Origin: Raillietiella orientalis
Lineage: Eukaryota
Length of the DNA: 64,000 bases
Direction of reading: 5' to 3'
Assembly: GCA_036172245.1 (NCBI GenBank)
Contig: JAYWIR010000005.1
Span: forward strand, 3,596,001-3,660,000
The translations under genes were made by a program, and so were the position numbers. Positions 6,459 to 54,917 of this stretch are shown here, piece after piece (position 1 is the first letter of the stretch; every line of letters begins with the position of its first letter). The notes beneath the pieces were generated by a model. It saw only the letters and a list, made by a program, of their open reading frames with translations, was not told the DNA's origin and ran no database searches.

Positions 6459-6870
6459 TTCCAGGAGAGCTACTCACGAGTGGGATCCACGCACGAGAAT
6501 CCTTGAGGCACGCTGGCCGGCGGATGCGAGGAGAAAAATGTGCACGGAACTCGAAAACATCAAGCGTGAAAATCCAGCGGAATTCGAAACTCTTCCGGGA
6601 TGGCGAGCAGCTGGATTTAAAGGCCTCTGGGCCAATGCGCACATCATTCCTGCAATATTGCTACATCACAGGAAAGAGTGCTGGTCATCGCAGAATTTCC
6701 TCCATTCCACGTCGGCGTCTCCTCAGCTCCGTTGCCAGATCCGTGGTAAAGCATCCGTGGACTGTAAGTGCGCGCGTGCTTGGTAAGCGTTCCCGCAGCA
6801 CTCTGTAACTGCAGTTTTCCTTCCTTAGCTTTGGATGCCATCGCGTCGTGAGAAGATCGTGGATACCAGA

Positions 6871-7829
6871 ATGTTGCAACGCAATGTTTGTGCGCTTCTG
6901 CTGGGAATGTTCGTTCTGAACTGCAGTAAGTAGGGGCAATCGGAGTGAAGGGTGACCGTGCGGTGTGCGCTTGCTTGACCTCATTTTCCGCCTTGAAGAA
7001 GCAACACTTTTGTGTATCAGCGGGAAGTTTTTCCGAAGGTGCTCGAAGGAACTTCCGTCGGGGCAGCATCCGTTGCGTCTTTCTGAGTGCTGGAAACGGC
7101 GGCATGTGCGGAAAAGGAATAGGGAATTCCTAGTCGATCCGGAAATGCCCCATCCAGCATTCGTCGGGAGCACGCAAATTTGTGACCTGTTGCCGTGGGG
7201 ATCGAGTGCGACGCGACCCTAGTTCGTGAACCTTGGCGCGAAGGCGAGCCACAAGCGAGTGAGTGATTTGCTGCACTTTCAGTCCTGACCACGAAGCACG
7301 TCAGCTGCCAATACGATCCCGATGGAAACGACATTAAATGGAAATCCACTGATAGGTGAGCTACTCAAAGCGGACCTCACCTGCTTGTTTCCTGCGTATG
7401 TCCTCATGGAAGGAACTGTTGTTATGAATAACCTGGCACTTCAGGCGAGCTGCACACTTGGACGAGTGAAGTCTAGTGTGCACTCGAGCTACAGGATCTG
7501 TGGGCTCCCGGATTCTCTTGGGACTATGGACTTTTCTTATCTGAGGACTTTCCTGTCCTGAAGGGTTTCCTCTTCCCTAAGGGTTTCTTTCGATTCACCT
7601 GCTTGTCATTCTCCGCTTTCTCGAAGCATGTCTTCAAATTTGCAATGTCGATCCGTGAGATGCTTGTCATTTCTTGTCATTCGAACTTTCTTCTTGCAGG
7701 AGTCCTCGTAATGGACCTATAAAGTTACCCCAGTTGGCAACGGAAAAGGATCCGGTGGGAGGTGAGCCTTGCGATGACGATGCTGGCTGCCCAACTGCAC
7801 GCTGTCATTCCGACGAGTGTTTGCAATGA
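6871..7829 (+). CDS. Secreted cysteine-rich prepro-peptide, copy 1 (85 aa); exons 6871-6925, 7283-7355, 7700-7829
   Basis: Splice sites GTAAGT...TTTCAG and GTGAGC...TTGCAG join in frame. Product MLQRNVCALLLGMFVLNCILTTKHVSCQYDPDGNDIKWKSTDRSPRNGPIKLPQLATEKDPVGGEPCDDDAGCPTARCHSDECLQ*. AATAAA at 7839-7844. Probable 5'-UTR intron ~6764-6828. Confidence 0.85.
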
Positions 7830-8953
7830 GATTTTGTAAATAAAGTGTTTGCTTTTGTGCCTTCGATCTTCCGTTCTGCTGATTGTAGGGGATAAAGAAT
7901 TGTACTCGTGGAACAGCGAATCACTCTATCGAAGAAACGCATGCGGAATAGCCTTTCTCACACTTATCAGGGATCATGCTTCGTTCTAGCCAATTTTAGC
8001 TTTATTTCGTCTCCTTGGCGACCGGTGCGGTTTTGGAAATTCATGGATACATTGAATCTTCAGGGGGTTTCCTCCACGGTTCCAGAATATGGAGTTGTCG
8101 TGCTCTGACTGAAGCATGCAGGCAGCGTGCTCATCTTTGGAGAAGATGGACTCAACTGAACCGGTGGTTGTGGCTTCCTTCGACATCAAGGAAATTTCCG
8201 TATGTGGATTGCCAGTGTTGGTATATCATGAATTATGTTGCTCCTGGAGGCTGCACGCATCTCATGTTCGTGTTTTTCTCCGCTTGAGTGTGCGTCGCTG
8301 TGTGCTGTCCACTCTCGAGGTTTTCCCCTTTTAAGCACTTTGGCAACTCTCCGAAGCCTTTTAGCACTTTTGGCTTCACCAACGTTTCTTTAGTTCCTCG
8401 AATGCAAGAAGAGTGCTTTTTTTACTACTCAGGTGCTGAACGACGACAGCGTTTGTTGCCGTTTGCTAAGTGCATGTGATATGGAATGCAACATAGGGGA
8501 AAACAGATGATTTCTTTTGGATGCGTTATTGGAGATTTGAACTTGCAGCTGTAAGCACTTTCTAGAGATCAGAGACACTTTTCACCATAAATTGGCTTGC
8601 GTAAATGGCGTTTGCAGAGACGAATACGATGGGTTTATCGAATTGTTCGTGGATTCTTTGCTTGGGAATCTGGAATTCGACAGCCAAAAGGGAAGTGAGG
8701 CTCGTGTAGATGCTCTCTTCTCGTGAGATTGCTCTCAGATGGTGGACATTGAGGTGTGCATCTCTCTGTGTATTCTTTTGTAATTTCCCATCTATTTTTA
8801 CATGCTTTCGTGATATTGAGCCGTGGTTTGAGCATTTTCAAATGGTTGATAGTCAAGAAGTACTTCACATGCATCTGTCTTCAGTTCCTCTCTCTTATGC
8901 ACGTAATGCTTTGGAACAAGCAGATGCTATGTGTGAAATTGAGGTCTCCCCAG

Positions 8954-8980
<27 letters not shown>
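8954..8980. repeat. (TA)n microsatellite; a copy one unit longer at ~41895-41923 and another (TA)n at ~55448-55470
   Basis: Read directly from the sequence. Confidence 0.95.
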
Positions 8981-8984
<4 letters not shown>

Positions 8985-11898
8985 CGAAAGAGACACATGA
9001 GCATTAGATTCTTGAAAGCTCATCGAAAAGGAAAGATCTGCACTCTGAGGTCCATGTGGAACAGAATCTCAGACGTCATCGTTTTTTTTTTTTTTTGGTT
9101 GGGCTACAGGAATTTCCTGTCACAAAGTTGGAAACCGTTTGAAACTATACACAAAGATGAGAGGTTCTTCAACTCTCCTCTGCACAACGGAATTTTTCAG
9201 GTTGCAGGGAGATTCCAACAGTGAAGATGGTACAAGGTAGGAAAAAAGGGAAATCCAGGGTGCAAAAACATATTTTGAAGAAGAAAGGTGTTTTTCGTGT
9301 TAAGCTAGGGCACGTGGAGTGCTCGCACTGTGGTGTTAGAAAGCTTGGACAAGTCGCAGCAGCAACAACTAGCTGTTGAGAAGTTGAAGAAAGAGAGAAG
9401 CCAGGCCGAGAAAGAAAAAGAACTGATCTGCATAGAGAGTTACGAGAACTCCCAGTCAGGGATGAACTCGGAAAAGTGACTTCGTACACTTCAGAAATAA
9501 AACACCTCTAGAGAAAAATGTGAAAACTTTGAAAACGCGTATATTGTTTCTGACTAGCTGTGGGGTACCACAGTTATTCGGACTGGGAATGTTGGTTACA
9601 GGAAAAACCACTAAGAGGTGTGGGACTTTCTCTGTACCAATGGTGGTACATAGGGCTCATCATTCCACCCACGGAAGAGTGGATGGCCGAAGAGGTAACT
9701 TCAAACTCACGAAGAAAGAACTGCAGTACTAGATAGATCCTGGGCCTTACGGTACAATTCCTAAGTGGAAAATAAGATGCCTTTCTTGACTCAATAAAAA
9801 TTAATTCTTACCCCGATTCACAACAGGACACAGCTCTGCCGGTGCTCATAGGTTCCGAGTGCGAAAATTCCTCAACAAACGTCAGTCGCTAAAGACTTGA
9901 AGAACTGTTGAAAATGCTTACCTTGAAAATCCAACCCGCCTTTTTTAATGGCACCACCTACGCCTCTGTAACATGAAGGACACAGAGAAGCTCACGTGAA
10001 GCGTATTACCCCACAAAAACAACATCCCAAAGAGATGCAATTTGCGTTCCTTGGTCTCAGATGCACCTTTCCTGGCTCCCCTCCTCTCCTTTCTGGCTAA
10101 CACCAAGACTAGGTTTCATCGTGCCCCGCTTTGCGATGAAACCTGCAAAGCGCTGCCACGAAACCATCCCGTTTCCATACACGCGCACGACTAAGGAATG
10201 AACACGGTGATCAATCAAGAAAATGGCACGAAACGACGATTTTTCTCGCCTCAGACAAAACTCAAGCGGAACCCTTCAGTCCTCCATTCTTTACTTACAT
10301 ATCTGACGGATGTAAGTAACCAAGATCATCATCTTGGTTACTTACATCGCACCAGACCTCGTTCTTGCATTCCAGACGGACATTCTCGCTCTCGCACTGC
10401 AAGAATTGCGCACTTTCCAGTCCAAGTTCACTCGCTGCTCCGAATGGCATCCCAAGCAAACGTGCTAGCCAGATCACTCTTCGCGTCGCGGATCGAAGAG
10501 CGTTTCCATCGAAACAAGTACTGGAAGTTTGCGAAATAAAGAAGGCAGACATGTCCCGGTCCTAAAGGGAGATAAACAGATCTCAGAGCAGAGGATGCAG
10601 TGGAAGGCGAGGAACAAACGATCAGAGAAGATGCACCGCTGAGGACGTTCCACGTCCTTCGCTTGCGTTCAACTACAGTGCGCGGGGAAGAACTCTTGCA
10701 TAGCGCTGGGGACATGACTCCTCCCAACTGGGAACTTCCAAAGGCAACAGAGAAATAGGAACGCCATCGAAACGTTCTCCACCCTTGTCCTCTTGGTCAA
10801 CACGAGTTTGCTTTTGCGAAAGAAAGCCATGGGGATGCTTCGAATTTTTGCAGCAAGGGAACCAGACCTCCGTCAAGCGGGAGGAAACAAGGAAGCCCCT
10901 GAATCCGCACGGAGGAGAATGCACAGAAGAAGTTTCAAGGACAGCCGCCTGCTCACTTCTGCGAATCACAAGCAGCGATCCTTCACTTCTCCCTGTTGAT
11001 TTAGAGATCTCATTCGGGCACAAGCTTGACTCCGCGGGCATTCGAAGTGAGGTTTCAGAAGCCCGCGCAAGCGGAGGGAAAAGCACTTCGTCGCCGCAGG
11101 CCGTCAGACAGGCGTGTCGTCGGAGCAGGACCGAACGACGGCTGGCTTGCGTAGCAGCGGATCAGCTGAAAATCCTCCCTGACTTGGGTCGGCCCGGACT
11201 TTATGCATGCCTTCAGTTTTATCTGATTCGGAAGCCTTGGTTTCGCTTGAACGTCATACTAAGGGAAGGAACGGATGAACCACCTTCCCCGATGCAAGCT
11301 CCTGAAAGTCAGCATCCGCTCTGTTTCCTGGTCTTCTGCAGCGATTTTTTTTTTTTTTTGCGTACGATTGCAGCCTGCACGCGTTGCCGAGCATTGTACA
11401 GTTGCAGTGCGCATGTGCAATACCAGCTGCTTCCGTACTCACTGCCAGTCATGGAGAGTTCAGACATCGCTTATTCGAAATATCCATGAGCAAAGCAAAA
11501 GCCGCAAGGAACGGAAATCAGAATGTGAAACAGAGAAAATTTTCAAACAAAAGGGGTTGCTTTTGACCATGTGCATATCTGGAATCGTACCCAGGAATGG
11601 GGACTGCTCGGAGGAATAAGAATTGCGCATTACCAAATCCATAACGGCCAAAAGTGGCCACATTACACTCTAAAGATCATCGAGGACACATACTCTTTAT
11701 TCATCCGAATAGCACACTATAATGCTCGTGTTTATTGACACAACAAGATAAGGAATAGCAGCAAGGCCGCACAGTTTTGTGGAAAGAAAGAATAAAGCAT
11801 TATTAGAATCATTTTGTGGAATTACCCGTCATGTATTCATATAATGGAGACTCCGCTCACATTTCTAAAAAAACACCTTTGAATGACAGAACATTGCA

Positions 11899-12881
11899 TC
11901 ACGTGGTTCCGTAAGGAACACATTTGTAGTTTTTGCAGACACCCTCATAGCAATCCCAATCTCTTATGCACTGGACGCGAGGCTTCACTCTTTTCTCCGC
12001 TGCAGCATTTCCATATTCTGAATCCTGGGGTATCTGCGCAGAGCCATCACGCTTATTCCTACAAGAAAACATTTTAAAGAAATTGCTAAAGATTTACTAA
12101 TAGTCACTATAGATTTCTTGAAAATCGAGGAGAGCATGAAAGATAACACGTCAGCGATGTCAGCGTTATTTCCAAAAATAAACACTGCTTTCGTAAGACA
12201 ACAGTCACTAAAATAGCAAAGACACTACCCCTAAGAAGATATGTGCGCCAATAAATTCTCTGTCTCGTGTGCACACTGGAGTTTCCTAGTCCAGGTGTGC
12301 TGATCGCCTTAAATGGAAGGGTTTCCAGAACAACAGCTCCTTCATGAGGAGAGTATTCGGCAAACCAGCAGGAGAAATCCGCTTTGAGTAGCTCACCTAT
12401 GACTACGTTTCCATTTAACGTCGCTTTCATCGGGATCGTATTGGCAGCTGACGCGCTTCGTGGTCAGGACTGAAAGTGCAGCAAATCACTCACTCGCTTG
12501 TGGCTCGCCTTCGCGCCAAGGTTCACGAACTAGGGTCGCGTCGCACTCGATCCCCACGGCAACAGGTCACAAATTTGCGTGCTCCCGACGAATGCTGGAT
12601 GGGGCATTTCCGGATCGACTAGGAATTCCCTATTTCTTTTCCGCACATGCCGCCGTTTCCAGCACTCAGAAAGACGCAACGGATGCTGCCCCGACGGAAG
12701 TTCCTTCGAGCACCTTCGGAAAAACTTCCCGCTGATACACAAAAGTGTTGCTTCTTCAAGGCGGAAAATGAGGTCAAGCAAGCGCACACCGCACGGTCAC
12801 CCTTCACTCCGATTGCCCCTACTTACTGCAGTTCAGAACGAACATTCCCAGCAGAAGCGCACAAACATTGCGTTGCAACAT
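11899..12881 (-). CDS. Secreted cysteine-rich prepro-peptide, copy 2 (95 aa); exons 12881-12827, 12469-12397, 12058-11899
   Basis: Same intron phases (1, 2) as copy 1. Product MLQRNVCALLLGMFVLNCILTTKRVSCQYDPDESDVKWKRSHRNKRDGSAQIPQDSEYGNAAAEKRVKPRVQCIRDWDCYEGVCKNYKCVPYGTT*. Confidence 0.85.
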
Positions 12882-14750
12882 TCTGGTATCCACGATCTTC
12901 TCACGACGCGATGGTAACGAAAGCTAAGGAAGGAAAACTGCAGTTACAGAGTGCTGCGGGAACGTTTACCAAGCACGCGCGTACTTACGGTCCACGGATG
13001 CTTTACCACGGATCTGGCAACGGAGCTGAGGAGACGCCGACGTGGAATCGAGGAAATTCTGCGATGACCAGCACTCTTTCCTGTGATGCAGCAATATTGC
13101 AGGAATGATGTGCGCATTGACCCAGAGGCCTTTAAATCCAGCTGCTCGCCATCCCGGAAGAGTTTCGAATTCCGCTGGATCTTCACGCTTGATGTTTTCG
13201 AGTCCCGTGCACATTTCTCTCCTCGCATCCGCCGACCAGCGTGCCTAAAGGATTCTCGTGCGTGCGTCCCAGTCCGTCCAGAGCCCACTTGAACCCAAGG
13301 TCAAAGCAGTAGTTCACGCAGCATCCGCAGTGCACTGGATTAATTTCGTGTTACTCGCAAAGAAGCTGCGTTAGATGTATAAGGTTCTAAGGCATGCCCC
13401 GCTGCATTTGTTCTGAGCAGCCGCAGAGATAAACTATCAGAATGCAATGTCATGTTACGTGAATAGAGGTTACTTTGATCTGGGATGATATTTTAGAAGA
13501 GCTACGGAAGAACTGAGTTGAATATACGAGAAACCATTATGCATGGACCTTAGGACACTCCACATCCAACAAGCTGCTTCTTGAGTCTAGTGAAAAATTA
13601 ATCCAATGTTTACTAGGCGTTCATCCTGCTTCTCCTTTCCATGACTATCCTGTATCCTTGGGAACTACACAGTGCACTGCGGATGCTGCGTGAACTACCG
13701 CTTTGACCTTGTGTTCAAGTGAGCTCTGGACGGACTGGGATGCACGCACGAGAATCCTTTAGGCACGCTGGCCGGCGGATGCGAGGAGAGAAATGTGCAC
13801 GGAACTCGAAAACATCAAGCGTGAAGATCCAGCGGAATTCGAAACTCTTCCGGGATGGCGAGCAGCTGGATTTAAAGGCCTCTGGGCCAATGCGCACATC
13901 ATTCCTGCAATATTGCTACATCACAGGAAAGAGTGCTGGTCATCGCAGAATTTCCTCGATTCCACGTCGGTGTCTCCTCAGCTCCGTTGCCAGATCCGTG
14001 GTAAAGCATCCGTGGACCGTGAGTACGCGCGTACTTGGTGGGCGTTCCCGCAGCACTCTGTAACTGCAGTTTTCCTTCCTTAGCTTTCGTAAACATCGCG
14101 TCGTGAGAAGATCGTGGATACCAGAATGTTGCAACGCAATGTTTGTGCGCTTCTGCTGGGAATGTTCGTTCTGAACTGCAGTAAGTAGGGGCAATCGGAG
14201 TGAAGGGTGACCGTGCGGTGTGCGCTTGCTTGACCTCATTTTCCGCCTTGAAGAAGCAACACTTTTGTGTATCAGCGGGAAGTTTTTCCGAAGGTGCTCG
14301 AAGGAACTTCCGTCGGGGCAGCATCCGTTGCGTCTTTCTGAGTGCTGGAAACGGCGGCATGTGCGGAAAAGGAATAGGAAATTCCTAGTCGATGCGGAAA
14401 TGCCCCATCCAGCATTCGTCGGGAGCACGCAAATTTGTGACCTGTTGCCGTGGGGATCGAGTGCGACGCGACCCTAGTTCGTGAACCTTGGCGCGAAGGC
14501 GAGCCACAAGCGAGTGAGTGATTTGCTGCACTTTCAGTCCTGACCACGAAGCGCGTCAGCTGCCAATACGATCCCGATGAAAGCGACATTGAATGGAAAC
14601 TTAGTCATAGGTGAGGTGCGCCAAGCGGATTTCTCCTGCTGGTTTGCCGAATATTCTTCTCATGAAGGAGCTGTTGTTCTGGAAACCCTTCCATTTAAGG
14701 CGAGCAGCACACTTGGACGGGTAAACTCCAGTGTGCACTCGAGATAGAGA
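12257..14750. repeat. Long inverted repeat (arms ~12257-13337 and ~13670-14750, spacer ~330 bp) carrying peptide copies 2 and 3 head-to-head
   Basis: GCATCCGCAGTGCACTG (13321-13337) is the reverse complement of CAGTGCACTGCGGATGC (13670-13686), and the ORFs are mirrored on the two strands. Confidence 0.93.
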
Positions 14751-15101
14751 AACACAGATGTTGGCGCACAGATCTTAGGAATAGGGACTTTGCTTTTCTG
14801 AAAGCTTTTCTGTCCTGAAGGCTGTGCTTTGTCATGAGGGTTTGGTACGCCATCGTCAGCTTGTGAGGTTTCACGTTCTCGTTGGGCTTTCTTGGAATCC
14901 GTGTTCTTGATTGGTGAATTGCATATTATCTCATTGGAACCGTTCTTTTATAGAAGTAATCGTAATGGACCGATGTATGAGCTCCCAAGGAAGCAGAATG
15001 TGGAGATGAACACTCCAAAAGAAAAGGTGTTTTACATCCCTTGTTCGAAAAATTCCGAATGCGCTACTCAAATATGTTACCTCAATAAATGCGTAACCTG
15101 A
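14126..15101 (+). CDS. Secreted cysteine-rich prepro-peptide, copy 3 (91 aa); exons 14126-14180, 14538-14610, 14954-15101
   Basis: Product MLQRNVCALLLGMFVLNCILTTKRVSCQYDPDESDIEWKLSHRSNRNGPMYELPRKQNVEMNTPKEKVFYIPCSKNSECATQICYLNKCVT*. AATAAA at 15111-15116. Confidence 0.85.
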
Positions 15102-15788
15102 GGTCCTATGAATAAACTGCCTCGCTTTGGAAGATTCTCGTTTTGCTCATTTTGAGGAATGGAAATTTGTACCAGTAGATCTGGGGTTTTCCAAATAAAT
15201 GCCAGAAACCCCAAAGTGCCTTTCTGATAATTTAGGCTGATTTTTCTTTGTTCCAGGTAATTCTTATGTGAGGTCTTCGGCCCACATGTAAAGCTTCATA
15301 GCCAATGCAGGAATCATCGGGTGAATTCCAGCCTGGAATTACCTTCTTCTCCGCACGGGCTTGCGGGGTTTTTTGGTGGCAACCTGTGACCTCATTTCCT
15401 CTTTTCTTTGCTTGTGAATGCTGCATTTTCTCAGATCGTCCGGTGCCCCGTTACTCGAATTGTCTCGACCTCCTGCATAAATCTGAAGGAAAATGCGCCC
15501 GGCACTCGTAGTCCAAGGATTGTGGTGCCGGAGGCACGCAGATGCCTGCGAAGGCACCCCCTCGTCAAGACACCGGCTTCCCGTTTGCGGCTGTTGTGCT
15601 TCCTTATCCCGTCGCAAGCGAATGCGCTACATCCATCTTGGCTGCTGTCCCTCACATTGCCCAGTCGTGGGGCAGCTGGCTGCGATGCACAGAAGACACT
15701 GAAGTCTCATCTACCGGAGGAAACAGGCAGCTCAGCCAGTAGGCTTGGTGACTAAGCTCCGAGTAGGCCGCCGTGGTCGCATCCGTTT

Positions 15789-18700
15789 TGTTCCACAAGA
15801 TTCCCGTATGGAATCGAGTGTTTGCCCTGTTCTTAGGCAATCGGATGCCATCCCCGGGGATTCGGGGAAGGGGTCCGTAACGAAAGGGCGTATTTATATG
15901 CCCGTCGTTACGCGAGGACCCCTAATGTCCGTCGCCTGGCAGAGTACCGAGCAGGGGCCGAACGTCAAGCCTGGCAATCCGGGTCGGCCAGCTTGCTGGA
16001 CGATCAGGGCCGGGAGCACTCGGCCCCGGCTAGGATGCGGCACCTCGTGCGGTGTTATTATTCCTCCCTTTATGCCAGGGCGCCCCCGGACCAAGATGCC
16101 TCTCGGCGCTTGCTTCCGGATGGTGCCCCGGTAATAGGGGAGGAGGAGAAGGAAAGCCTCGACGAGCCTTTTACCACCGGCGAAATTCTCGCCAGTATCA
16201 AAAGGTTCAAGAAGCGGAAAGCACCAGGGGAGGACGGCCTGCCCGAGGAGTTTTTTCAAGGCTTCGCGGCAGAGTTGGCACCCCTGGTGCTTCAGTTGAC
16301 AAGGCTGATCCGAGACGCAGGTGATGTTCCCGCCTCGTTTCGGTCAGCCAGAGTGAGGCTCCTCCCGGAAGAAGGTGACCTCAGGAAACTCAGCAACTGG
16401 CGTTTGATCACAATTGTGAATACGGACGCCAAGCTGATCGCCGGACTGTGGGCTTCGCGTCTGGGGCAGGTGGCCAATTCCGTAATTCGCCCGGAGCAGA
16501 CTTACGCTGTTCCCGGGCGAAGTATGGAGGCCAACCTCTTCTTCGCGAGCACATGGTTTCATGTGCAGAGTAGTGAAGAAAAGGAAGAGGGAATGATTGG
16601 CAGCCCCGCTTTGGGGGCGTCAGCAGGGCAGGGACAGGACTCCCAGGTGGAGAAGGGGACCCTAGCCATCGCAGTCGATCTGCATAAAGCGTTCGACTGC
16701 GTGGACCAGGATCTCCTGCTGGAGCTCCTGGGACGCATGGGCTTCCCTCCCTTCCTACTGACATATTTGCGCTCTTGCTGGCGCAGCGCGCTAATTAATA
16801 TCTCTTTCAGAGGTCAAATGGCGTACGGCGTGCCGGTACGGCGGGGCATACGGCAGGGCGACAGCCTCAGTCCCCTGCTCTTTAGCACCTACTTTGAGTT
16901 GGTGCTGAGAGCGTACAGGGTGACTTTGGCCCCTTGCCGAGCTCGTGCCCTCGCACGCCCGCCGTAGCAGCGTATACCGACGATCTTCTGCTCCTGTTGC
17001 CGATGTCCACCCCGGCGAAGGCGGTCGGGGATTTCTTCGATCTGCTTAGCCGCGGGATTGGACTGCAGGTTAACAGGACGAGTAGTCGGTCGGTGGTGCC
17101 AGTTGGTACGGCGTGGGCTGGGCAGCAGGACTGGGTCCGTTTGGGGATCCCCACGGCGAGGTGCTTGAAGTACCTTGGTGTGCCGTTGGGGGACTATTCC
17201 CTTTCGGATGCGTGGTTCGGCTGCCTCCAAAAAGTGGAAACGGCGATCGGCCCGTTCCTGGAAGACAAGTTTCTCCTTCCGGAACGGGCCGCGGTGTGGA
17301 ACGTTCGCGGCTCCCATCCTCCGCCCCCTGCTTTTTGTTTGCCCGTCCCCCGGGAGTTAAAGAAACGGACGAAGGACCTCCTGAGAATTGCCCTTTGGGT
17401 AAGAGGGAGGCCCCGAGTCCCGTTGAAGGACTTGTGTGCTCCACGTCGGGATGGCAGTCTCGGTCTCTTGACGTTGGAGCGAGTAGAGATACAGCTGCGA
17501 TGGTGCACCCTGGCCATCGCAGCGATGTTATGGAGCACCCCATGATGCGTTTAGGCCCGACTCCTTGCCAGCCGTGTATCCTTGACGGAGGGTCTCGCGT
17601 CTTATCTTCTGTGCCGTGGCTCGAAGATCAAGAGATGCGGACTTCTCCTGGGACGCATGGCAACTCTGGCTAAGGAAAACGGCTGGATGGTATGCAGCCC
17701 CGCCAACTCCTCCGCATGGCTGGAGGAGACAGCTGGCACGTGGGCGAAGATCAATGAGAAGAATGAAGAGATGTGGAACTGCCTGCGACGCGGCGCCTAT
17801 TTCCGCTGCACTCTGCGGAAGATACTCCAGTGTCCCGCGGGAAGCACGTGGGCAGAGACAACCCCCCTAGCTACGGCGATGCCTTTCTTGAGGAGGGCGC
17901 TCTCCAGCAGCCGCAAGCCTAGGTGGCAAGTCTCCTGCTGTATCGCAGGCAAGGAGAAGCTGATGAGCGGCTGGTCCATGAGGGAACTGGCAGACGCCAC
18001 GACCCGAAGTGTCCTTTCGCGAGGATTAGTGAAATGGGGCGAGCTGCTCGGCATCCAGCCGGATGACCTGAAGTGGCCCCCGGTATTCATTGGTTCGAGG
18101 ATCCTCCCCCTGAAGTGGCAGGAGTCGGCGCTTCTGTTGTTGCATTGGGGCCTGCCCTGCAACGCACGTCGCCACCACTGGACCAGGGGTCGAGTGAATC
18201 CCGACTGCATCAGGTGTGGGGAGCGGGAATCCCTCCCCCACCTTCTTGTTGATTGTGCTGCCCTCCGACCCCTGTGGGAACGTCTTCGTGTCTCCCTACG
18301 GATCCAGGAGGGCAGCCAGCCCAGAGACGTTTTTCGGCTTCTGTTCGTGCAGGATGCCCTGCGACCATTTGCTGCCCTGGATGCACTTTGCTGCGTCCGT
18401 GGGATCGTGACGTGCTGGAGCGACGTGAGAAGACCGAGCCACGACAGGGATGCCGTCGAACTTGCAGTCCGCTACCTGCGGATTGCGACCAGATGGCCCC
18501 ACCTGGGAATTATACTGACGGACCTCGAGGGCATCCTGCAAAGGATGGACCCTCCTCCCAGTGGTCAGTGATCCCTCCCCAACCCTCCAAAATCTTATGT
18601 TTATGTTTTTATTAATTTTATGTTTTATTTTTCTGTTTGTTTTTTCCCCCACCCCCTTCCGCTGCCGAGGAGAGTCGCGCCGGTTTGCGTACCGGCAACC

Positions 18701-27900: not shown

Positions 27901-28707
27901 ACTTATATATATTAGTACATATACACACTTTTATGCAAATATATATATATAAATACATTTCTTATCTTTCGTTTTTGTTTACTCGCTCCCCTTCTTTTGC
28001 CTCTGCGTACATCTTTCGAGAAGCAGCCAGCGAGAAGCAGAATCTCCGAAATTCCCATCCTACTAAGAACTCTCAAAAAGCAGACAGTCGTCGTTCAGCA
28101 CCTGAGTAGTAAACAAAGCACTCTTCTTGCATTCGAAGAACTAGAAAAACGTTCGTGAAGACAAAAGTGCTAAAAGCCTTCGAAGAGTTGCCAAATTGCT
28201 TAAAAGGGGAAAACCTCGAGAGTGGACAGCACACAGCGACGCACACTCAAGCGGAGAAAAACACCAACGGAGATCAGTGCAGCCTCCAGGAGCAACATAA
28301 TTCATGATACACCAACGCTGGCAACCCACATACGGCAATTTCCTTGATGTCGAAGGAAACCACAACTTCCGGATCATTTCAGTCCATCTCTTCCAAAGAT
28401 GAGCACGCTGCCTGCATGCTTCAGTCAGAACACGGCAAATCCATGTTCTCCAACCGTGGAGGAAACCCTCCGGAGATTCAATGTAACTTACGATTTCCAC
28501 AACAGCAATAAGGCAGCAGCCGTTGCCATGGAAGAGGAGCGGAGCTAAAACTTGCTAGAACGAAGATACCTCGAAAGTGTGAGAAAGGTTATTCCGCATG
28601 CGTTTCTCCGATAGAGCGATTCGCTGTTCCACGAGTACAACCCTTTGCCCTTCACAATAAACAGAACACAAAACCGAAGAAACGAACAATGCTTTATTGA
28701 CAAAACC

Positions 28708-29666
28708 TCAGAACCTACATTCGCCGTAAACACAGTGTCCCTCTGGGCAATCAGAATCGCTTGTACAAACCGCAGTCCTTTGTACTTTCTTTCCATTTAT
28801 CTCTTGAGATACCTTTATAGGTCCATTACGAGGACTCCTGCAAGAAGAAAGTTCGAATGACAAGAAATGACAAGCATCTCACGGATCGACATTGCAAATT
28901 TGAAGACATGCTTCGAGAAAGCGGAGAATGACAAGCAGGTGAATCGAAAGAAACCCTTAGGGAAGAGGAAACCCTTCAGGACAGGAAAGTCCTCAGATAA
29001 GAAAAGTCCATAGTCCCAAGAGAATCCGGGAGCCCACAGATCCTGTAGCTCGAGTGCACACTAGACTTCACTCGTCCAAGTGTGCAGCTCGCCTGAAGTG
29101 CCAGGTTATTCATAACAACAGTTCCTTCCATGAGGACATACGCAGGAAACAAGCAGGTGAGGTCCGCTTTGAGTAGCTCACCTATCAGTGGATTTCCATT
29201 TAATGTCGTTTCCATCGGGATCGTATTGGCAGCTGACGTGCTTCGTGGTCAGGACTGAAAGTGCAGCAAATCACTCACTCGCTTGTGGCTCGCCTTCGCG
29301 CCAAGGTTCACGAACTAGGGTCGCGTCGCACTCGATCCCCACGGCAACAGGTCACAAATTTGCGTGCTCCCGACGAATGCTGGATGGGGCATTTCCGGAT
29401 CGACTAGGAATTCCCTATTCCTTTTCCGCACATGCCGCCGTTTCCAGCACTCAGAAAGACGCAACGGATGCTGCCCCGACGGAAGTTCCTTCGAGCACCT
29501 TCGGAAAAACTTCCCGCTGATACACAAAAGTGTTGCTTCTTCAAGGCGGAAAATGAGGTCAAGCAAGCGCACACCGCACGGTCACCCTTCACTCCGATTG
29601 CCCCTACTTACTGCAGTTCAGAACGAACATTCCCAGCAGAAGCGCACAAATATTGCGTTGCAACAT
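28708..29666 (-). CDS. Secreted cysteine-rich prepro-peptide, copy 4 (85 aa); exons 29666-29612, 29254-29182, 28837-28708
   Basis: Product MLQRNICALLLGMFVLNCILTTKHVSCQYDPDGNDIKWKSTDRSPRNGPIKVSQEINGKKVQRTAVCTSDSDCPEGHCVYGECRF*. AATAAA about 10 nt after the stop. Confidence 0.85.
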
Positions 29667-30740
29667 TCTGGTATCCACGATCTTCTCACGACGCGATGGT
29701 AACGAAAGCTAAGGAAGGAAAACTGCAGTTACAGAGTGCTGCGGGAACGCCCACCAAGTACGCGCGTACTCACGGTCCACGGATGCTTTACCACGGATCT
29801 GGCAACGGAGCTGAGGAGACACCGACGTGGAATCGAGGAAATTCTGCGATGACCAGCACTCTTTCCTGTGATGTAGCAATATTGCAGGAATGATGTGCGC
29901 ATTGGCCCAGAGGCCTTTAAATCCAGCTGCTCGCCATCCCGGAAGAGTTTCGAATTCCGCTGGATTTTCACGCTTGATGTTTTCGAGTCCCGTGCACATT
30001 TCTCTCCTCGCATCCGCCGGCCAGCGTGCCTAAAGGATTCTCGTGCGTGCATCCCACTTCTTGAGTAGCTCTCCTGGAATTTTACACCCGGGCATGCCGG
30101 GGCGTTAATTTAAGGAAAATAATTCAATTTGCATCTGAGTTTTTAGTCGAACACTAAATAACTTGAAGGGAAGAAGAGCCCACCGACTGTCCGGTGAGCG
30201 CAACTCTTAGCGGGGGACGAAAACGAAGGGACAAGAAACGAAGGAAGCGATGGGGACAGGGATTGACGTTGCTTGCCGTTTCTTTTTTTCCGAACAGGCT
30301 CTGTACATTGGCTTTACTGGTGCTTGTAGGCGTGTTCACCTTGCGGCCTCCCCCAAGTAGGAGGCTGCCATCGCCACGGACTCTCTCGTCTTCGCGTCTG
30401 GGGCGTCCGGAGCACACGGAGCACCGTGACGGCCACGCGGATGGAACACTTTGTCGCGATCAGTGTGCCGAGACCAGTGTCGAGAGTGCGTCGTGCACGA
30501 AGCTTCGGGGAAACAGCTCACGGGCAGCGTGCTGCTGGTGCGGGAGCGCTCATGCCAGGCAGCACCACGTTCAACGGGGGGCACTGCAGTACAAAAGAGG
30601 GTGCAAGACCGGTGCCACCTACCCACATACGGCGCAGTACAGGAATGCGACCCTTCTGGAAACAAGGTGGAGTCACCGATTCCATTGCTATCCCCGGTGC
30701 AGAAACTGCAGAACATCCTGCCTCCAGCTTGAAGGAAATA
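28813..30740 (-). repeat. Inverted duplication of ~1.9 kb; partner ~38750-40665 (+)
   Basis: Mirror-image ORFs (29432..29893 vs 39585..40046; 30154..30417 vs 39061..39324). Identity ends 25 nt into peptide exon 3. Confidence 0.93.
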
Positions 30741-33105: not shown

Positions 33106-34064
33106 ATGTTGCAACGCCATGTTTGTGCGCTTCTGCTCGGAATGTTTGTTCTGAACTGCCGTAAGTAGAGGCAATCGGAGTGAAGGGTGACCGTGCGGTG
33201 TGCGCTTGCTTGACCTCATTTTCCGCCTTGAAGAAGGAACACTTTTGTGTATCAGCGGGAAGTTTTTCCGAAGGTGCTCGAAGGAACTTCCGTCGGGGCA
33301 GCATCCGTTGCGTCTTTCTGAGTGCTGGAAACGGCGGCATGTGCGGAAAAGGAATAGGAAATTCCTAGTCGATGCGGAAATGCCCCATCCAGCATTCGTC
33401 GCGAGCACGCAAATTTGTGACCTGTTGCCGTGGGAATCGAGTGCGACGCGACCCTAGTTCGTGAACTTTGGCGCGAAGGCGAGCCACGAGCGAGTGAGTG
33501 ATTTGCTGCACTTTCAGTCCTGACCACGAAGCGCGTCAGCTGCCAAGACGATCCCGAGGAAGGCGACATTAAATGGAAACGCACTAATAGGTGAGCAGCA
33601 GAGGACGCATTTCGACTGCTTCTCCTCCGCGTATCTCCTTATGGAAGGAACTGTTCTGGAATCCTTAGCATTGAAGTCGAGTTGCACACTTGGACGGGTA
33701 AACTCCCGCGTGCACTGGAAGCAAGGAATTTGTTGTCTCGCGGATCTTCCTAGGGATTGGGACTTTGCTTTCATAATGGCTCTCTTCTTTCTTTCCTATT
33801 AGGATATCAGTTGCATCATGGAAATACAACTTTGCTCCTTCTGATTGTTTTCGCGAGAAACACGTGATGTGGTTCCGTGAACTACTTTCTGAATGTTTGA
33901 ATCTGTCTTATTCCAGCGATGATCGAGAAGACTTGATCAAATTGTGCCCGAAGAAAGAAGTTCCGTATCAAAATTTTGTAAAAAACAAGATTGTTTTGGT
34001 GGAATGTTTGGAGGATTCCGATTGCGAATTCGGAAGATGCTGCGACTTTTTATGCGTGAAGTAA
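33106..34064 (+). CDS. Secreted cysteine-rich prepro-peptide, copy 5 (91 aa, six Cys in exon 3); exons 33106-33160, 33518-33590, 33917-34064
   Basis: Product MLQRHVCALLLGMFVLNCLLTTKRVSCQDDPEEGDIKWKRTNSDDREDLIKLCPKKEVPYQNFVKNKIVLVECLEDSDCEFGRCCDFLCVK*. The shared upstream block is truncated at ~32918. Confidence 0.82.
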
Positions 34065-34327
34065 AGAGCTGTAATGAAACTGGCTCGTCTTGGAAGATTC
34101 TCGTTCTGCTCATTTTGAGGAATGGAAATTCGTACCAGTAGATCTGGGGTTTTCCAAATAAATGCCAGAAACTCCAAAGTGCCTTTCTGATAATTTAGGC
34201 TGATTTTTCTTTGTTCCAGGTAATTCTTATGTGAGGTCTCCGGCCCACATGTAAAGCCTTATAGCCAATGCAGGAATCATCGGGTGAATTCCAGCCTGGA
34301 ATTAGCTTCTTCTCCGCACGGGCTTGT

Positions 34328-34534
34328 ATCACCCGGGTGCGCCGGGGCGTTTATTAAAAACTATCCGGGAACAGAGTTCCTGGACAAAGGGAAAAACAAG
34401 AGACGAAGGGGGTGGGATCCCCGACACGCAGGTCGGTATGCCGAAAGTCCGGAACGGGAGGGAGGGGACCACAAATACACTACTATAAAAAATAAAAAGA
34501 AACTGGCTCGTGGGGTTAAAAAGAAACTACCTGG
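34328..34534 (-). mobile_element. 207-bp insertion of the element-A-type 3' UTR, flanked by a 15-16 bp target-site duplication
   Basis: CTCCGCACGGGCTTGT at 34312-34327 and 34535-34550. The paralogous empty site at ~15349-15363 has a single copy. Most of the insert matches 2500-2660 in reverse. Confidence 0.93.
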
Positions 34535-46500: not shown

Positions 46501-48887
46501 CCGGTGCACAGCGGCGGAACCGGGCTCCTGGTGCTCGACCTCTCTGCACTGATGAGAAAGACAGACCATGTGCCTGCCTCCTTTCGCTCAGCGAAGCTGC
46601 GTCTCTCCTGACGATAAACACGGACACCTTTGGAGTCTGAACAAAACGCATTTTATGGAATGCACCTACTTTACGTAGAGCTCGATTCCACAATGCACTA
46701 TAGAGGTCTCTCTATATTTCCAATTTGAAATGAAAATGGAATCAAAACACACGCCATAGTTGAACACAAACATCTTATTCCATAAAAGCGCAAACAAAAT
46801 ATCTTGCACCTAGGAATGTTAAGAGATGAAATAAAAACCTCGGCTTTGCGTTTGGTCATTAATAAGCGTGGATTAAATGGATGAACTCCCTTACAAGCTG
46901 GTAGGTTTATGGTGTTAATTTAAGTTACTCGTACCATGAATGTTAGTAATTCCGTAAACCATTACGCAGGTAATGGGAACCACAACATGATGAGCTACGA
47001 CATAGTAAAGATGTTCCCAATCTTTTGTGCTATGTCACAACATGTGTGTAAATAACGAATCATAGCATCAAAATAACAACGAATGTACCAAAAGAGTCCA
47101 AAGGAATAGGAAAGTCTTATCGATTCACGCACATTCCGTCTTTCATACATATTCGGGTTCTATCTCCAGATTTGGATGTTTCCGAAATACAAAAAAAGTA
47201 ACGGTTCCTTGACTACTTTAATCGGAATTATCAGCCCCCTCGCATTGATTTGCAAACACCAGACTGCAAAACTGCACAAACTTCCCACATTTTCCGAACA
47301 CCTTGTAAAGTATCCACCCGAAATAGGTAGTTTTCACAAGGTTTGTAGTCCTTAACACACGTACCGACGTATAGCAACAAATGCATCGAGATGGCAATTT
47401 CTGATACAGTTCGATGCAAAGCAAAAGAATTTTTGCTTCTTACGATGATTTGTGTTTCTCAATACAATTGTATTAAAGAATAAGAAAAAACATTTATGAA
47501 AACATTTAAAGATTTATGTGTTTCAATATGTTTCCTTATATTCAACGTATGTGCAAACAAATTTATCTTGAGAAAATTATAATAAAGTTCTAAATATATG
47601 GTGTATGTATCTCATTGTTCTATAAAACACACAAATTTACCAGCAGATGTGTTTCCTAAAGATGGATCTTTTATGAAACAGGTATGCACAGGATCACATC
47701 TAGATGCATAAATCTTGTATAAAAGTCCTTATTAATTATGACTTTACATAAACAATTCACAAAATAAGAGTCTGTCACTAATGCTCAATCCACATACAAG
47801 TCTACTTGGTATGTTTTTAGGTTATGGAATGCTATCTTGTTTGTAAAAAAAATAAAATAAAATAAAAAAAAACTAGAAGTATTCAAAAGATCTTCGAAAA
47901 CTTCAGAAATCAATAGAATATTTTTACAAATTTTGGAAAATCAATTTGTTTTCTGTTACCTATCCATATATGGCACCCATCCCATTCAACTTGCATCATT
48001 TACAAATTGCATACATGACTAAACCAAAAAATCCTCATTTTTCATCACATCAGGCACACAATTATTTGAAATAAAATGACCCATACCAACACGAAAAGTC
48101 AGTTACAGTAACTAGCAAAATCTGGCCTACCAAAGGAAGTTCTTACTCAGCTTGTCTAGTTCCAAGTGAATCAATTATCATGCATTAGGTTTCAACAGCT
48201 AAGTTCCTACCAACAAATCCTCACATACAGAACAGAACTAAAGTAACCATTATTCCTCCCATAAATGTGACTGTTTTACAGTTGCAACTTCTGATACTTT
48301 TTTGTAATTTAGAGCTCATCATCTACATTGTCTACTTTTCATGAAAATTATCAATATTTTACTTCATTAAACTTCTATATGCCTAACTAGTGATTATAAG
48401 CACAAAAAAAATTACAAAATCAGAATGAAAAAGGGTTTGTTAGGACAGCATTAGCTTGACTCAAATACAATGCAGAGTATGTGAAGTATTGCTCAAGTTA
48501 TGGCAAATAACACTTCACAGAACAGTTTGCAATTAATGTCTTCCTTAACATATTAAATATTACTCATAAGGATGCTCCATCTGTCACTAATGTAAGCAAT
48601 TCTCCTGCTTATCCCAATGCATGCTTACTAATCAAGCATTAATTATGTCTGATGCAACATAACTTGGAATGGCTACAGTTGCCATTTATTTCATTCTTTC
48701 TTCAGCCTCGATTGTCTGTTGCTGCCGACAATCTTGCTGATACAGACATGGCCACTAGCAAATAAATGCACAACTTTCAATAACCAACTCACTTTATCTG
48801 AGTTCAAAATTACAGGTGGACAACACATGGCATTTGTCTCTTGGGAAAAACACATGTACTGCAGATATAAATCTTCTAAACTCACAG

Positions 48888-49766
48888 TTACTCACGATGT
48901 AACAGAACAACCAATCCAAGTACAAGAAGAATGGCATACTTTATATAAAGTTATCTTTTTGTTTGTTATACATTATCCTAACTTACCTTTAATTTAGGAT
49001 AGTCATTCATTAATATAGTAACAATGCCCACATAAGGCACAAATCCCTTTGCCCTTCCAATAACATCTGAAGAATTCAGCCATAACTGCCCAGGAGCATA
49101 TAAACCACGATCATCTACATTGTTATTATCACCTTTGGTAAGGAATTTCATCTGACCATTTTCTCTGAATCAAGATTAGTTTTACATTGTATATAATGGA
49201 CTTACTTTTCATGAAGCTTGATTACACGATGTACTATAGGTATCTCTCTACCTTCGATTTTAAACACTACAATATCACCTACTCTGATTGGATCCTCTGG
49301 ATAATTGGTAAGGAATAAAAGATCACCCCTATGGAAGGCCGGCTCCATGCTACCACTTCAAGAAAATCAAACATGAATCATCACAACAAAATTTTTAACT
49401 TATGCAACATATGTAAACTATCATTCAATACCAAACGCAGTAATGATATATTGTTTTTGGAACATTTCGCTCAAAATTACATTCGTTGTGAAATACTTGT
49501 GAGCGTATTCACAAAAAAAATAGTGTTCTTTGCTAAATCAATATAAAAATACCTTAAAACAACTACAATTGGACTTTCACTTCCCGTGCAAATCATTAGA
49601 CCTTTCCAAATCATCAAGGCTGATGAGACTATAATTATCAGATTCAGTATCTGATACACCCTCTACAAAAAGGTTTTGGTTATAAAAAAACAATACCCCA
49701 CTTACAAACCTGTCGTTTACTCATTCGCTGTAATTCAGTAAACGCATTTACAAATTTTGATGTCAT
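48888..49766 (-). CDS. SEC11: Signal peptidase complex catalytic subunit SEC11 (181 aa); exons 49766-49710, 49662-49553, 49355-49206, 49164-48987, 48938-48888
   Basis: Motifs [57 protein letters not shown] and [16 protein letters not shown]. All introns are GT-AG and in frame, 546 nt in total. Confidence 0.97.
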
Positions 49767-52700
49767 GCTCAAGCACTGTTACACTTGTACTTCCCAACCT
49801 TCCCAAGCTACAAAACAAAGAAAACTCCGTTGCACAGCTTTCACGAAATTGTCCTTTCCAGAAAGGTATTTCGTAATATTCTGGCTTAAGTTTTTTGTAG
49901 TTTCGCAAATTTTGAGAATTCAACAACTGGGGATCAAAACTAACACAAAGGTTTTCATCCAAGAATATCAGTTCTCTTTAAAAAGAAACACATCCTCATT
50001 TTCTTTTGATTCCTCGAACGACACGAGTCCACACTCATCTCCACACGTATGCACAGCATTCCCGTTTAGCGATTTTTCATTTTTTGCGTTTTTCTTGCAG
50101 CTGAACTGAAATGAATGAAAAGTCTTTCTTATCTATCCCATATTATTTTATAAACTTGTTTTAAAAATGCCTTTGATTAATATACTACTATTCAAAATAT
50201 CACTAGATGTATAATCTTTCTTTGTATCTATATTTAACACTCAAGAACGACAGAACCGGCACGAGCCGGTCCGTTCCATCCACCTTCCATTAACATTTGT
50301 TTTGTTTAAAGAAATTCAGTAATTGGAGACCGAAAAATGGATAACCTGGTCCAGTTGTCATCTCTTCTTAAAACTTTTCCTTGATGATTAATGGTTTTTG
50401 AAGTTTTTAAATAAATATCTGGATGGTGTGCATAAAACTTCCTTATATTCGACGCAAATACTCCTACAGGTTCCACAAAATCTCAGTTTCCCTTTGAAAT
50501 AATGAAAATTCAACCCTAGTACGAATACTAAGTTTCAACACAACACGAAATACTCCTCAGCATATTGGGAAACAGAAGGTTGCAAAAATCTTGAAAATAA
50601 GAATGTGATTATGAATCATAAACAGATTGAAATCTACGAGAAATTTGCAACGTTTCTAAAAAGTATTTTTCAGTTATTATTCAATGGATAGGAACGCACA
50701 TAAGTGTACTCCGAAGCATCTCACCCCTTCTAACGAAACCTTGATTATCTTGCTTGTTTTATTGTCATGAGTTTTGATATACTAAGAATCTCAGTCAGTT
50801 CCAGCTGGATATTGAAAATGTTTTCTTTTTCCAAATTAACATTTTACTTTGAAATCAAATTAGGATGACACCGAACAAAGCAATACTACTGTTAGTTCCG
50901 AATAGAATATGAATTTTCGTGAGGTATCACCTAGAAGATATATCTTCATTGTTCTCAAGACAATGGATGCTGTATCATAGATCTGCATGATTTCTTGGAC
51001 TTTTGTTTTGAATCATTCTCAGCATTTGTGGATTCTTTCTCAAAATTGCAGCTGTTTTTACATGTCTTTTAAGCAGTTTATATTTGATGTTATGGGAAAT
51101 GAATCTATCTTTTCTTCTTACATAATTTAAAATTAAGTGCTTTGATGGAATACATGCAAACAAACGAAAATAGGAAAAGCTTCTAAATGAATGCCTTCTC
51201 TTATTTTTAGTTAATAAATATTATTGCAAGAGCACTCATATTTCCTATACAAGAAAATCTTCCTTAAAATCAAAATGCTTTTGAGTACATACTTATCCCT
51301 GCTGTATACAGCTATATAGTGCGTGGACTATGGAACAGTTATTGGCCATCATCAAATTTGCACAAGGACAGATTATTTAGAATTCAAATTTCTGTCATCT
51401 ATATCTCTTTTCTGTACCTTATTTTAACATAGTGGAAATGCATGAAATATATGCATTTCATACCCGTGTGTAACACATGTAAGAAATACGGATGCATGTA
51501 TGCCACTAGTATAGGAAAGGTGTTAACGGTCATTTCTAATATTCTTGAACCTTAATTTTGAAAGAATATAAGAATCAAGTGCGGATAAAATATGGAGAAT
51601 TAAAGTATTGCAAAAATTGAGGTTAGGCTTCCTAAATGACAGAAACTGTTCAAATCTTCTAATGGTGTATTTCCAGTAAAATTGTATACACCCAACTTTT
51701 ACCCTTTGGCAAACAAAATTTTGATTTCGTCACAGACAAAATAGATTAGCCATTTTTGGTAAGCATGAGTAATCAGTTCCATTGAATGCTGAATTTGAAT
51801 TTTAGTTTCAGTGTCCCTTGTACAGTTAAAAATATGTTTTCTTAAGCTATTTTAGTCAACTAAAATCAGTTGATCCATTGAACGGCTGTCTTCGGACAAA
51901 CATTTATAGCTGAATTTTTATTGCTGGTCCATTATGAAGCCACTGCAACTATAAAGCCACACGCTACTTTAAGGAGCACTTTAAGCTGCATACAGACGAC
52001 ACTTGCTGTTTTGATTCTCCCTTGACTATTATGGGAGCAGATGCTTGCATGAGTTGTACTCTTCATTTTAAAATAGAAATTCTTTTACTTTCTATTTCTA
52101 TTTGGACTAAAATGAATTCCAATTTTTGCTTTCCGAGTGCATACTCTGATTTCTGAAGTCGTACTCACTCTCGCTGCAAACATCAAATTGGTCATTCGAG
52201 TATCCATAAAAAGAGTAATAATCTGTTTTTATCGTCGTATTTGATATTTCTCTTTGAGATTAACACATAAGAACTCAGTCTGCTCTTATAGAGACATTAT
52301 TCCCTACTTCTGAAGCCTTCTGAAAATGTCACCAATAGGGATACATCTTGGAATTTTGATACCAGGATTTTCAGGACTTTCCTAAATCTGCGAGACCGAT
52401 AACAAAGGTAGTCAAATATTAGCCTAATACTCCATATCCAAATGCATCTCATTTCTCTTGGTTCGCGTATCAAGATGAAACCAAGTCAGCCACAACACCC
52501 TCAAGTAGAAGACTCTTGGGTTTCTTCCATCCCTTGCAATCTCTCAGCAGCTGGATTGCTTTTCCATTTCCCAGATCCCCAATCAAGATGCTCTGGACAT
52601 AGACAGCCGTTACTAATCCAGAGAACGAAACTACATCCTCAATACCGAGCGGAGCAGACGTCTAGGTCTCCAGGGCTTCGTTTTTCCGGTGAGCGAATCC

Positions 52701-54714: not shown

Positions 54715-54917
54715 TGCCAAGGCCTACACGTCTCGCCGGAAGACACTTTCCAAAAATTTTATACCGTCTACACCATCAGAAAACTAGTGCATCGCGAAGG
54801 TGTATCGTGTGTTCAAAAAATGGCACTGGTAAGGAAACACGGTGTTGGTGCCTGTGAGGTGCCACTTTGTGGCGCGTCTTGCCTTGAACAATATCGTAGT
54901 GCAAAATTCAGACTGAA
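54715..54917 (+). mobile_element. piggyBac-type transposase C-terminal cysteine-rich domain remnant (frameshifted)
   Basis: RPTRLAGRHFP...SRRCIVCSKNGTGKETRCWC / CEVPLCGASCLEQY fits the RLxGxHFP...RRCxVC...KETRxxCxxCxVPLC pattern of piggyBac C-termini. Confidence 0.75.

Follow-up and report, generated by a model that had tools for sequence, protein, structure and literature searches.

A 64,000-nucleotide (nt) stretch of the Raillietiella orientalis genome (GenBank assembly GCA_036172245.1, contig JAYWIR010000005.1, positions 3,596,001 to 3,660,000 of the forward strand) carries six copies of one three-exon gene. The whole of this stretch is referred to here as the window, and all coordinates are counted from its first letter. 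To judge from the sequence, the six copies form a cluster of paralogous genes for small, putatively secreted, cysteine-rich peptides. In the fourth of these (copy 4, on the minus strand) a tract that is identical in copies 1 and 6 ends abruptly 25 nt inside exon 3, between 28813 and 28812, and gives way to a peptide-coding tail that differs from theirs at nearly half of its positions. This break probably marks the 3′ limit of a ~1.74-kb patch of recent interlocus (ectopic) gene conversion, which abuts a protected, deeply diverged peptide-coding core.

The six genes, found with a 35-nt start-codon probe, have their ATG at 6871 (+), 12881 (-), 14126 (+), 29666 (-), 33106 (+) and 39812 (+), and all six share one architecture. 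Exon 1 of 55 nt is followed by a GTAAGT donor and an intron 1 of 357 nt, exon 2 of 73 nt by an intron 2 of 326-344 nt, and exon 3 is 130-160 nt in length. The introns are GT-AG, in phases 1 and 2, and an AATAAA lies shortly past the stop codon in copies 1, 3, 4 and 6. The products, of 85-95 amino acids, have a hydrophobic N-terminus, MLQRN[IV]CALLLGMFVLNC..., and a C-terminal C-x5-C-x4-C-x4-C module, and in the predicted precursor the signal peptide is encoded by exon 1 and the pro-region by exon 2 and the start of exon 3. In a six-frame scan exactly six such modules are present in the window, all of them in these genes, with a mean of 0.07 in 30 shuffles.

The original prediction had placed a sharp recombination-like break 25 nt into exon 3 of copy 4, and the maximum chi-square breakpoint falls exactly there (chi-square 387 at 28813|28812). 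The 25-nt string that opens exon 3, GAGTCCTCGTAATGGACCTATAAAG, has three exact matches with no mismatch, at 7700-7724 (+), 28813-28837 (-) and 40641-40665 (+), and none of 100 shuffles gave a match. As had been claimed, copy 4 shows no difference from copies 1 and 6 in a three-way alignment of exon 2 (73 columns), intron 2 (344 columns) and these 25 nt, up to 28813 in copy 4, 7724 in copy 1 and 40665 in copy 6. The identity extends much farther 5′ than was stated at the time. Copy 4 equals copy 1 in 838 of 838 columns (29650-28813), and over 30550-28813 it differs from copy 6 at a single one of 1738 columns, at 29420. Past the break 50 of the 105 columns of exon 3 nt 26-130 differ from copies 1 and 6 (55 are identical), and the translations bear out the switch to a different peptide of the same length, with 9 of 34 residues shared. 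The downstream flank is also alignable again, as was foreseen, with 78/307 differences (28707-28408) followed by 27/322 (28407-28087), and the 3′ homology among copies 4, 1 and 6 ends at 28087, 8447 and 41388, respectively. The break in copy 4 lies at AAG|GTATCT (28805-28815, minus strand), which is similar to a 5′ splice donor; copies 1 and 6 read AAG|TTACCC at this point.

The tract of high identity is flanked on both sides by diverged homologous sequence. Read from 5′ to 3′ along copy 4, the differences number 22/185, 1/1738, 50/105, 78/307 and 27/322, and the tract is distinct both from the 3′ side (155/734; Fisher test, p = 7e-86) and from the upstream flank (p = 3e-22). It takes in 884 nt of 5′ flank and both introns, neutral sites among them. 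For intron 2, identity between other pairs of copies is 68-87% over the first 150 nt and 55-64% beyond. As the identity spans introns and flanks, and intron 2 varies in the other pairs, selective constraint cannot explain the tract. An explanation by constraint alone would have the 5′ block identical through its function, as an intronic element or an antisense gene, and without recent exchange. It could draw on intron 1 and the proximal promoter, which are 97-100% identical in the six copies (intron 1 in every pair) and thus above exon 2 (88-100%), and on open antisense frames of 161-177 codons over the conserved core. However, these open stretches are without a start codon, fall in different frames between copies and have no Pfam match, intron 1 has neither an Rfam match nor a significant fold (z = -1.61), intron 2 varies freely in the other pairs, and identity at every site across 1.7 kb is more than constraint can yield, so that this explanation is scarcely credible. 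On the same grounds the antisense open reading frames (ORFs) were rejected as genes in their own right; it is copy 5 in which the frame is different. As to the RNA fold of intron 1, 5 of 100 shuffles folded equally well, and nothing in the window, intron 1 included, matched Rfam at its gathering thresholds.

Copies 4 and 6 are 8-12% diverged in their outer flanks, with 1.74 kb of identical sequence in between, which is the mark of a non-reciprocal patch on top of an older duplication. Had there been a single crossover, or a recent duplication of the whole unit, one side would have stayed identical to the end of the homology, and the tract, with its two ends, fits neither. The divergence on both sides likewise means that copy 4 is not a recent whole copy of copy 6. 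This bears directly on segment replacement, by an ASSET-like switch or by exon-segment shuffling, in which copy 4 would be a recent duplicate of copy 6 with a tail from an unseen member of the family. A sharp switch within an exon between conserved introns does recall the snake three-finger toxin genes, as described in PMC2474615, and possible donors were considered within the window only. Yet the tail and 3′ flank of copy 4 are homologous to those of copies 1 and 6 and closest to them, there is no orphan cassette in the window, and, where an unrelated segment would be expected, the tail is unchanged in length and in the positions of its cysteines and has a 3′ flank that is still homologous. 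We consider segment replacement highly improbable.

Gene conversion was assessed further with a GENECONV-like permutation test on 340 polymorphic ungapped columns (2000 permutations). The longest agreeing run spans 233 of the 340 sites for copies 1 and 4, 227 for copies 4 and 6, and 313 for copies 1 and 6, and no permutation reached any of these. Weaker but unusual runs are seen for copies 3 and 4 (16 sites, 0/2000) and copies 2 and 3 (18 sites, 1/2000), with no signal for copies 1 and 5 (1763/2000) or 2 and 5 (999/2000). For 9 of the 15 pairs the observed run was reached by at most 2 of the 2000 permutations, and for the other six by 15 to 1763. Identity of exactly 100% over 838 to 1738 nt, in three copies and in a repeat-rich region, might also arise as an artefact of assembly or polishing, if reads of the paralogues were collapsed, the 5′ block falsely homogenised and the cliff set where reads can be placed uniquely. 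This seems very unlikely, since the same assembly retains 36 differences between copy 1 and copies 4 and 6 in the adjacent 858 nt, a private base of copy 6 at the equivalent of 29420, and scattered single differences among the six copies inside intron 1. Copies 1, 4 and 6 also have different outer flanks, and a contig in which the common promoter, signal and pro-region (the chassis) is joined to the copy 4 tail requires reads that bear this junction.

The homogenisation is family-wide. The sequence of copy 6 is mosaic. Upstream of exon 1 nt 16 it is the same as that of copy 4, with 36 differences to copy 1 in 858 nt; from 40666 on it equals copy 1 (1 difference in 734 columns) and not copy 4, and continues with copy 1 to 44492, so that at least two exchange events are needed. 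The upstream differences of copy 1 are mostly private to it, and an A at +15 of exon 1 is common only to copies 4 and 6. By megablast, 6030-11549 and 38970-44492 form a 5.5-kb segmental duplication with 99.2% identity (40 mismatches, 2 gap openings), in which 36 differences fall within the first 857 nt and only 2 within the next 1561 nt. Counted from the ATG, identity among the six copies is 97-100% over -190 to +426; 41 columns in total vary among them over -200 to +449, and 20-63 per 50 nt after +450. Copies 2, 3 and 5 diverge from the common sequence in the middle of exon 2, and copies 1, 4 and 6 do so at nt 25 of exon 3. Intron 1, together with the proximal ~190 nt of the promoter, might act as a hot spot for conversion or have a regulatory role. 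The equivalents of intron 1 are at 6926-7282, 12470-12826, 14181-14537, 29255-29611, 33161-33517 and 39867-40223.

Trees built from separate segments are in conflict. Over -190 to +426 (segment A) copies 1 and 2 are joined with support of 97/95; over +427 to +853 (segment B) copies 1, 4 and 6 are identical and copies 2 and 3 are joined (84/89); and in the exon 3 tail copies 3 and 5 are joined (91/92) and copy 4 falls with copies 1 and 6 (84/83). The partner of copy 3 is copy 2 in the 5′ block, and copy 5 in both the tail and the 3′ flank. Separate trees for the 5′ block and exon 3, which the original prediction had proposed as a check, prove incongruent for copy 3 but have the same topology for copy 4, where the depth alone differs, from 0 to ~1.15 substitutions per site. 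That prediction had also suggested that a common chassis is spread onto different peptide tails or swapped between them. The 5′ block is indeed homogenised across different tails, but swapping of tails finds no support, and their shuffling among loci is contradicted by the position of the copy 4 tail beside copies 1 and 6, by a 3′ flank that is 75-92% identical to theirs and by the lack of orphan cassettes in the window. From the sequences it would appear that the chassis moves by non-reciprocal copying and that the tails stay in place, each with its own 3′ flank.

A mirror image of the copy 4 edge is seen when 15102-15788 downstream of copy 3 is set against 34065-34974 downstream of copy 5, where 96-99% identity for ~680 nt begins ~12 nt past the stop codon and the coding parts of exon 3 are ~54% identical, without an indel. 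With a 5′ edge in copies 1, 4 and 6 and a 3′ edge in copies 3 and 5, the peptide core is bounded on both sides, in different pairs. The 3′ flank of copy 5 carries a 223-nt insertion (34312-34534), which starts with a 15-nt direct repeat of the target (CTCCGCACGGGCTTG) and part of which, read in reverse, is similar to a palindromic GC-rich motif that copies 1, 4 and 6 have ~440 nt upstream; given the repeat and this likeness, it may be a small mobile element. Copies 2 and 3 are arranged head to head in a palindrome (12256-13337 against 14751-13670) with arms of 1082 nt that are 96.8% identical, around a spacer of ~330 nt, and the homology of the arms stops 141 nt into intron 2 of both copies.

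The diverged tail of copy 4 keeps its length of 34 codons, the position of the stop codon, the AATAAA at 28698-28693 and four cysteines, and is therefore a maintained coding sequence. Six columns are invariant across the five distinct tails, namely the four cysteines, R3 and K16. In our reading the peptide core is the oldest sequence in the unit. Between copies 4 and 1 the proportions of synonymous and non-synonymous differences (pS and pN) over the 34 tail codons are 0.46 and 0.50, with a ratio of non-synonymous to synonymous divergence (dN/dS) of 1.14, and between copies 3 and 5 the values for exon 3 are 0.49, 0.50 and 1.03 (Nei-Gojobori), all of these dN/dS estimates resting on just ~22-27 synonymous sites, near saturation. 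The tail is diverged beyond the adjacent 3′ flank (p = 5e-5) and the adjacent flank beyond the distal one (p = 8e-9). The 3′ side is patchy, with 32, 20, 22, 3, 20, 25, 6, 9, 4, 5, 3 and 6 differences in successive blocks of 60 columns. The 60-nt patch at 28579-28638, with 3 differences to copy 6 between neighbours that have 20-25 per 60 columns, is explained either by a short conversion event of older date or by conservation of an element downstream.

For some toxin and antimicrobial-peptide genes it has been proposed that the region of the mature peptide undergoes locally targeted hypermutation, and here the cliff would mark the edge of the hypermutated zone. Synonymous and non-synonymous divergence of the tail are both ~0.5, divergence peaks in the tail and declines unevenly with distance on the 3′ side, and in conotoxins, according to PMC3862624, Dn and Ds both rise from exon 1 to exon 3, all of which would be in keeping with such a process. 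It leaves unexplained, however, the absence of any difference in the 344-nt intron 2 that abuts the tail, where other pairs differ by 13-45%, as well as the second, upstream end of the tract and the conflict between the segment trees, and it has no known mechanism. Hypermutation is thus an unlikely explanation of the break; at most it adds to gene conversion and is no substitute for it, and as a local contributor to the island it may have played a part.

Several points weigh against a conversion patch that abuts a protected core. The junction is read from the assembled contig, which represents one haplotype, too little to settle which way the copying went or how many events there were. Differences in rate from one part of the sequence to another are not taken into account in the permutation test. 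The dN/dS of the tail, at ~1.1, is not clearly above 1, so that positive selection on the peptide is not established. The outer flanks are 8-12% diverged, and the synonymous divergence of the tail, at 10 of ~22 sites, greatly exceeds this (P = 2e-5); the island could be old sequence that escaped from conversion or a local mutation hot spot.

For gene conversion as the explanation, what we infer of the direction of copying, the termination of the tract and the role of selection is as follows. The patch would have made copy 4 identical to copy 6 and, over its last 838 nt, to copy 1 as well, copies 4 and 6 being otherwise old duplicates. The tract probably ended where it did because extension of the heteroduplex was blocked by the ~52%-identical tail, or because selection purges conversions that overwrite a distinct peptide. 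Repeated conversions would keep the chassis uniform in the six copies, and the peptide core of ~100 nt would persist as a divergent island. A more elaborate scheme, which we think improbable, is a cassette-style diversification in the germline, with a chassis that acts as a hot spot of conversion, or has a function of its own, and spreads to new tails, and a core that is shielded or hypermutated. If true, such a cassette system would be a eukaryotic peptide family with a built-in means of holding one expression and secretion module over many effector peptides.

Table 1. Coordinates of the copy 4 tract, its surroundings and the six genes within the 64,000-nt window.
Feature	Position	Strand	Remarks
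Probable gene-conversion patch, copy 4/copy 6	28813-30550	-	copy 6 coordinates 38928-40665; 1738 columns, 1 difference
Exon 3 nt 1-25, copy 4	28813-28837	-	last part of the tract; the same in copies 1, 4 and 6
Divergent tail of copy 4	28708-28812	-	50/105 columns differ from copies 1/6; breakpoint 28813|28812
Older upstream flank, copy 4 vs copy 6	30551-30735	-	homologous, 22/185 differences; sets the 5′ end of the patch
Older 3′ flank, copy 4 vs copies 1/6	28087-28707	-	homologous; contains AATAAA at 28698-28693
Copy 4 exon 1	29612-29666	-	55 nt, predicted signal peptide; next intron in phase 1
Copy 4 intron 1	29255-29611	-	357 nt; 97-100% identical among the six copies
Copy 4 exon 2	29182-29254	-	73 nt, predicted pro-region
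Copy 4 intron 2	28838-29181	-	344 nt, GTGAGC...TTGCAG; identical in copies 1, 4 and 6
Copy 4 exon 3	28708-28837	-	130 nt including TGA stop 28710-28708; predicted end of pro-region and C-x5-C-x4-C-x4-C peptide
Copy 1 gene	6871-7829	+	exons 6871-6925, 7283-7355, 7700-7829; equals copy 4 over 6887-7724
Copy 2 gene	11899-12881	-	exons 12881-12827, 12469-12397, 12058-11899
Copy 3 gene	14126-15101	+	exons 14126-14180, 14538-14610, 14954-15101
3′ flank of copy 3	15111-15788	+	96-99% identical to copy 5 flank 34073-34974
Copy 5 gene	33106-34064	+	exons 33106-33160, 33518-33590, 33917-34064
Copy 6 gene	39812-40770	+	exons 39812-39866, 40224-40296, 40641-40770

The peptides apparently belong to an undescribed family of small, putatively secreted, cysteine-rich peptides, for which, by analogy, a toxin, antimicrobial or signalling role may be envisaged. 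A profile of the five tails gave 46 matches at E <= 0.001 among 1.84 billion representatives. All but one of the 46 are partial, with the best stretch within positions 13-47, the other (P0013) covering positions 8-46, and most bear repeats of a cysteine module of ~20 residues. Scanning 18 of the matches against Pfam gave DUF7107 (5), EB (4), Dickkopf_N (3), Dumpy_DPY (3) and UPF0506 (2), with no family for 4. These minimal four-cysteine modules (Dumpy DPY, the C-terminal half of Dickkopf_N, DUF7107, EB and UPF0506) share the C-x5-C-x4-C-x4-C spacing of the peptides and often have a D/S-D/E-C...G-x-C signature, but the matches to them cover just ~20 residues. Exon 3 of copy 4 matches Dickkopf_N (PF04706) with 17.1 bits and E = 0.0071, over profile positions 29-50 only; membership of this family was rejected, the score being below the gathering cut-off of 25 and copy 1 giving no match. 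The best solved chain in the profile search is a Dumpy DPY module (1oig_A), of 21 residues and two disulfides, with E = 0.025 and 18 bits.

An AlphaFold model of the peptide has a mean predicted local distance difference test score (pLDDT) of 70.3, rising to 83-86 in the C-terminal blocks, and is confident only in a C-terminal hairpin. Alignment of the model with VIA-align gave no chain at Z >= 2 among 48,161. A relative of the full-length precursor was found neither among the 1.84 billion representatives with the profile nor in a word-index search with the exon 3 peptide of copy 4. In the ESM Atlas the best score for the peptide is 0.77, below the level of a lead, and a full-text literature search for the signal-peptide string found no occurrence.

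The remainder of the window holds features of other kinds. Remains of retroelements of the long interspersed nuclear element (LINE) type lie at 2-2365, 3194-4573 (-) and 15837-18571 and flank copies 1 and 3. They include RVT_1 matches (E = 2.6e-22 and 4.5e-15), a weak sub-threshold zf-RVT match and weak sub-threshold zinc-knuckle matches that suggest a gag-like ORF, and the ESM Atlas clusters nearest to the reverse-transcriptase ORF are of a generic Tx1-like LINE. Past ~47 kb (47000-64000) the GC content falls from ~47-62% to 33-39%. An ORF at 58364-58807 (+) encodes tetratricopeptide (TPR) repeats (TPR_1, E = 1.9e-15), with a weaker TPR match at 57124-57528, and these are probably parts of an unrelated multi-exon gene in the AT-rich compartment.

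The locus illustrates very cleanly an evolutionary pattern that is already known, and calls for no new mechanism. PMC3924837 describes paralogues that are homogenised over introns and flanks and in which a short, function-specifying stretch of coding sequence is highly diverged with sharp edges; in PMC3728101 'islands of genetic divergence' are reported for the GOT1 paralogues of Tigriopus. The likeness to the PMC3924837 paralogues lies in homogenised surroundings and a sharply edged divergent coding stretch. In contrast to those paralogues, the island here is the whole mature-peptide segment, of ~100 nt and with ~50% divergence, and not a few sites; six copies are involved, the tract ends are staggered and the dN/dS of the island is ~1. 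Recombination tracts that affect the signal-peptide and mature-peptide regions are also reported, with Geneconv and GARD, for defensin-like genes of Arabidopsis in PMC5731061. What the present cluster offers is a single-base view of a putative secreted-peptide family that keeps a uniform promoter, signal and pro-region with very different peptides. Its core has conversion tracts ending on either side, at 28813|28812 (copy 4) and ~12 nt past the stop codon (copies 3 and 5). It would make a compact test case for models of the divergence of duplicates under gene conversion.

In the ASSET system of snake three-finger toxin genes, segments of exons are radically different between isoforms and the introns nearly identical, as related in PMC2474615. 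The segment here, unlike those, is still homologous in length, cysteine positions and 3′ flank, and the locus looks ASSET-like because everything around the segment has been homogenised, not because an unrelated segment was imported. Conotoxin precursor genes have three exons that roughly correspond to signal, pro-region and mature peptide, with introns in phases 1 and 2 (PMC3862624), and the same exon plan and phases are found here, with exons 1 and 2 of 55 and 73 nt; the resemblance is one of organisation only. It extends to a conserved signal, a hypervariable mature peptide on a cysteine framework, and Dn and Ds that rise towards exon 3, while the introns, at ~350 nt, are about ten times shorter than the >3 kb given for conotoxin genes in PMC3862624. 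Homology to conotoxins was considered and rejected, as no sequence similarity was found in the profile and word-index searches, and there is no support for a venom function. The cluster nevertheless bears on a question posed by conotoxins and amphibian skin peptides alike, namely whether it is selection, an escape from conversion or hypermutation on a local scale that makes mature peptides hypervariable.

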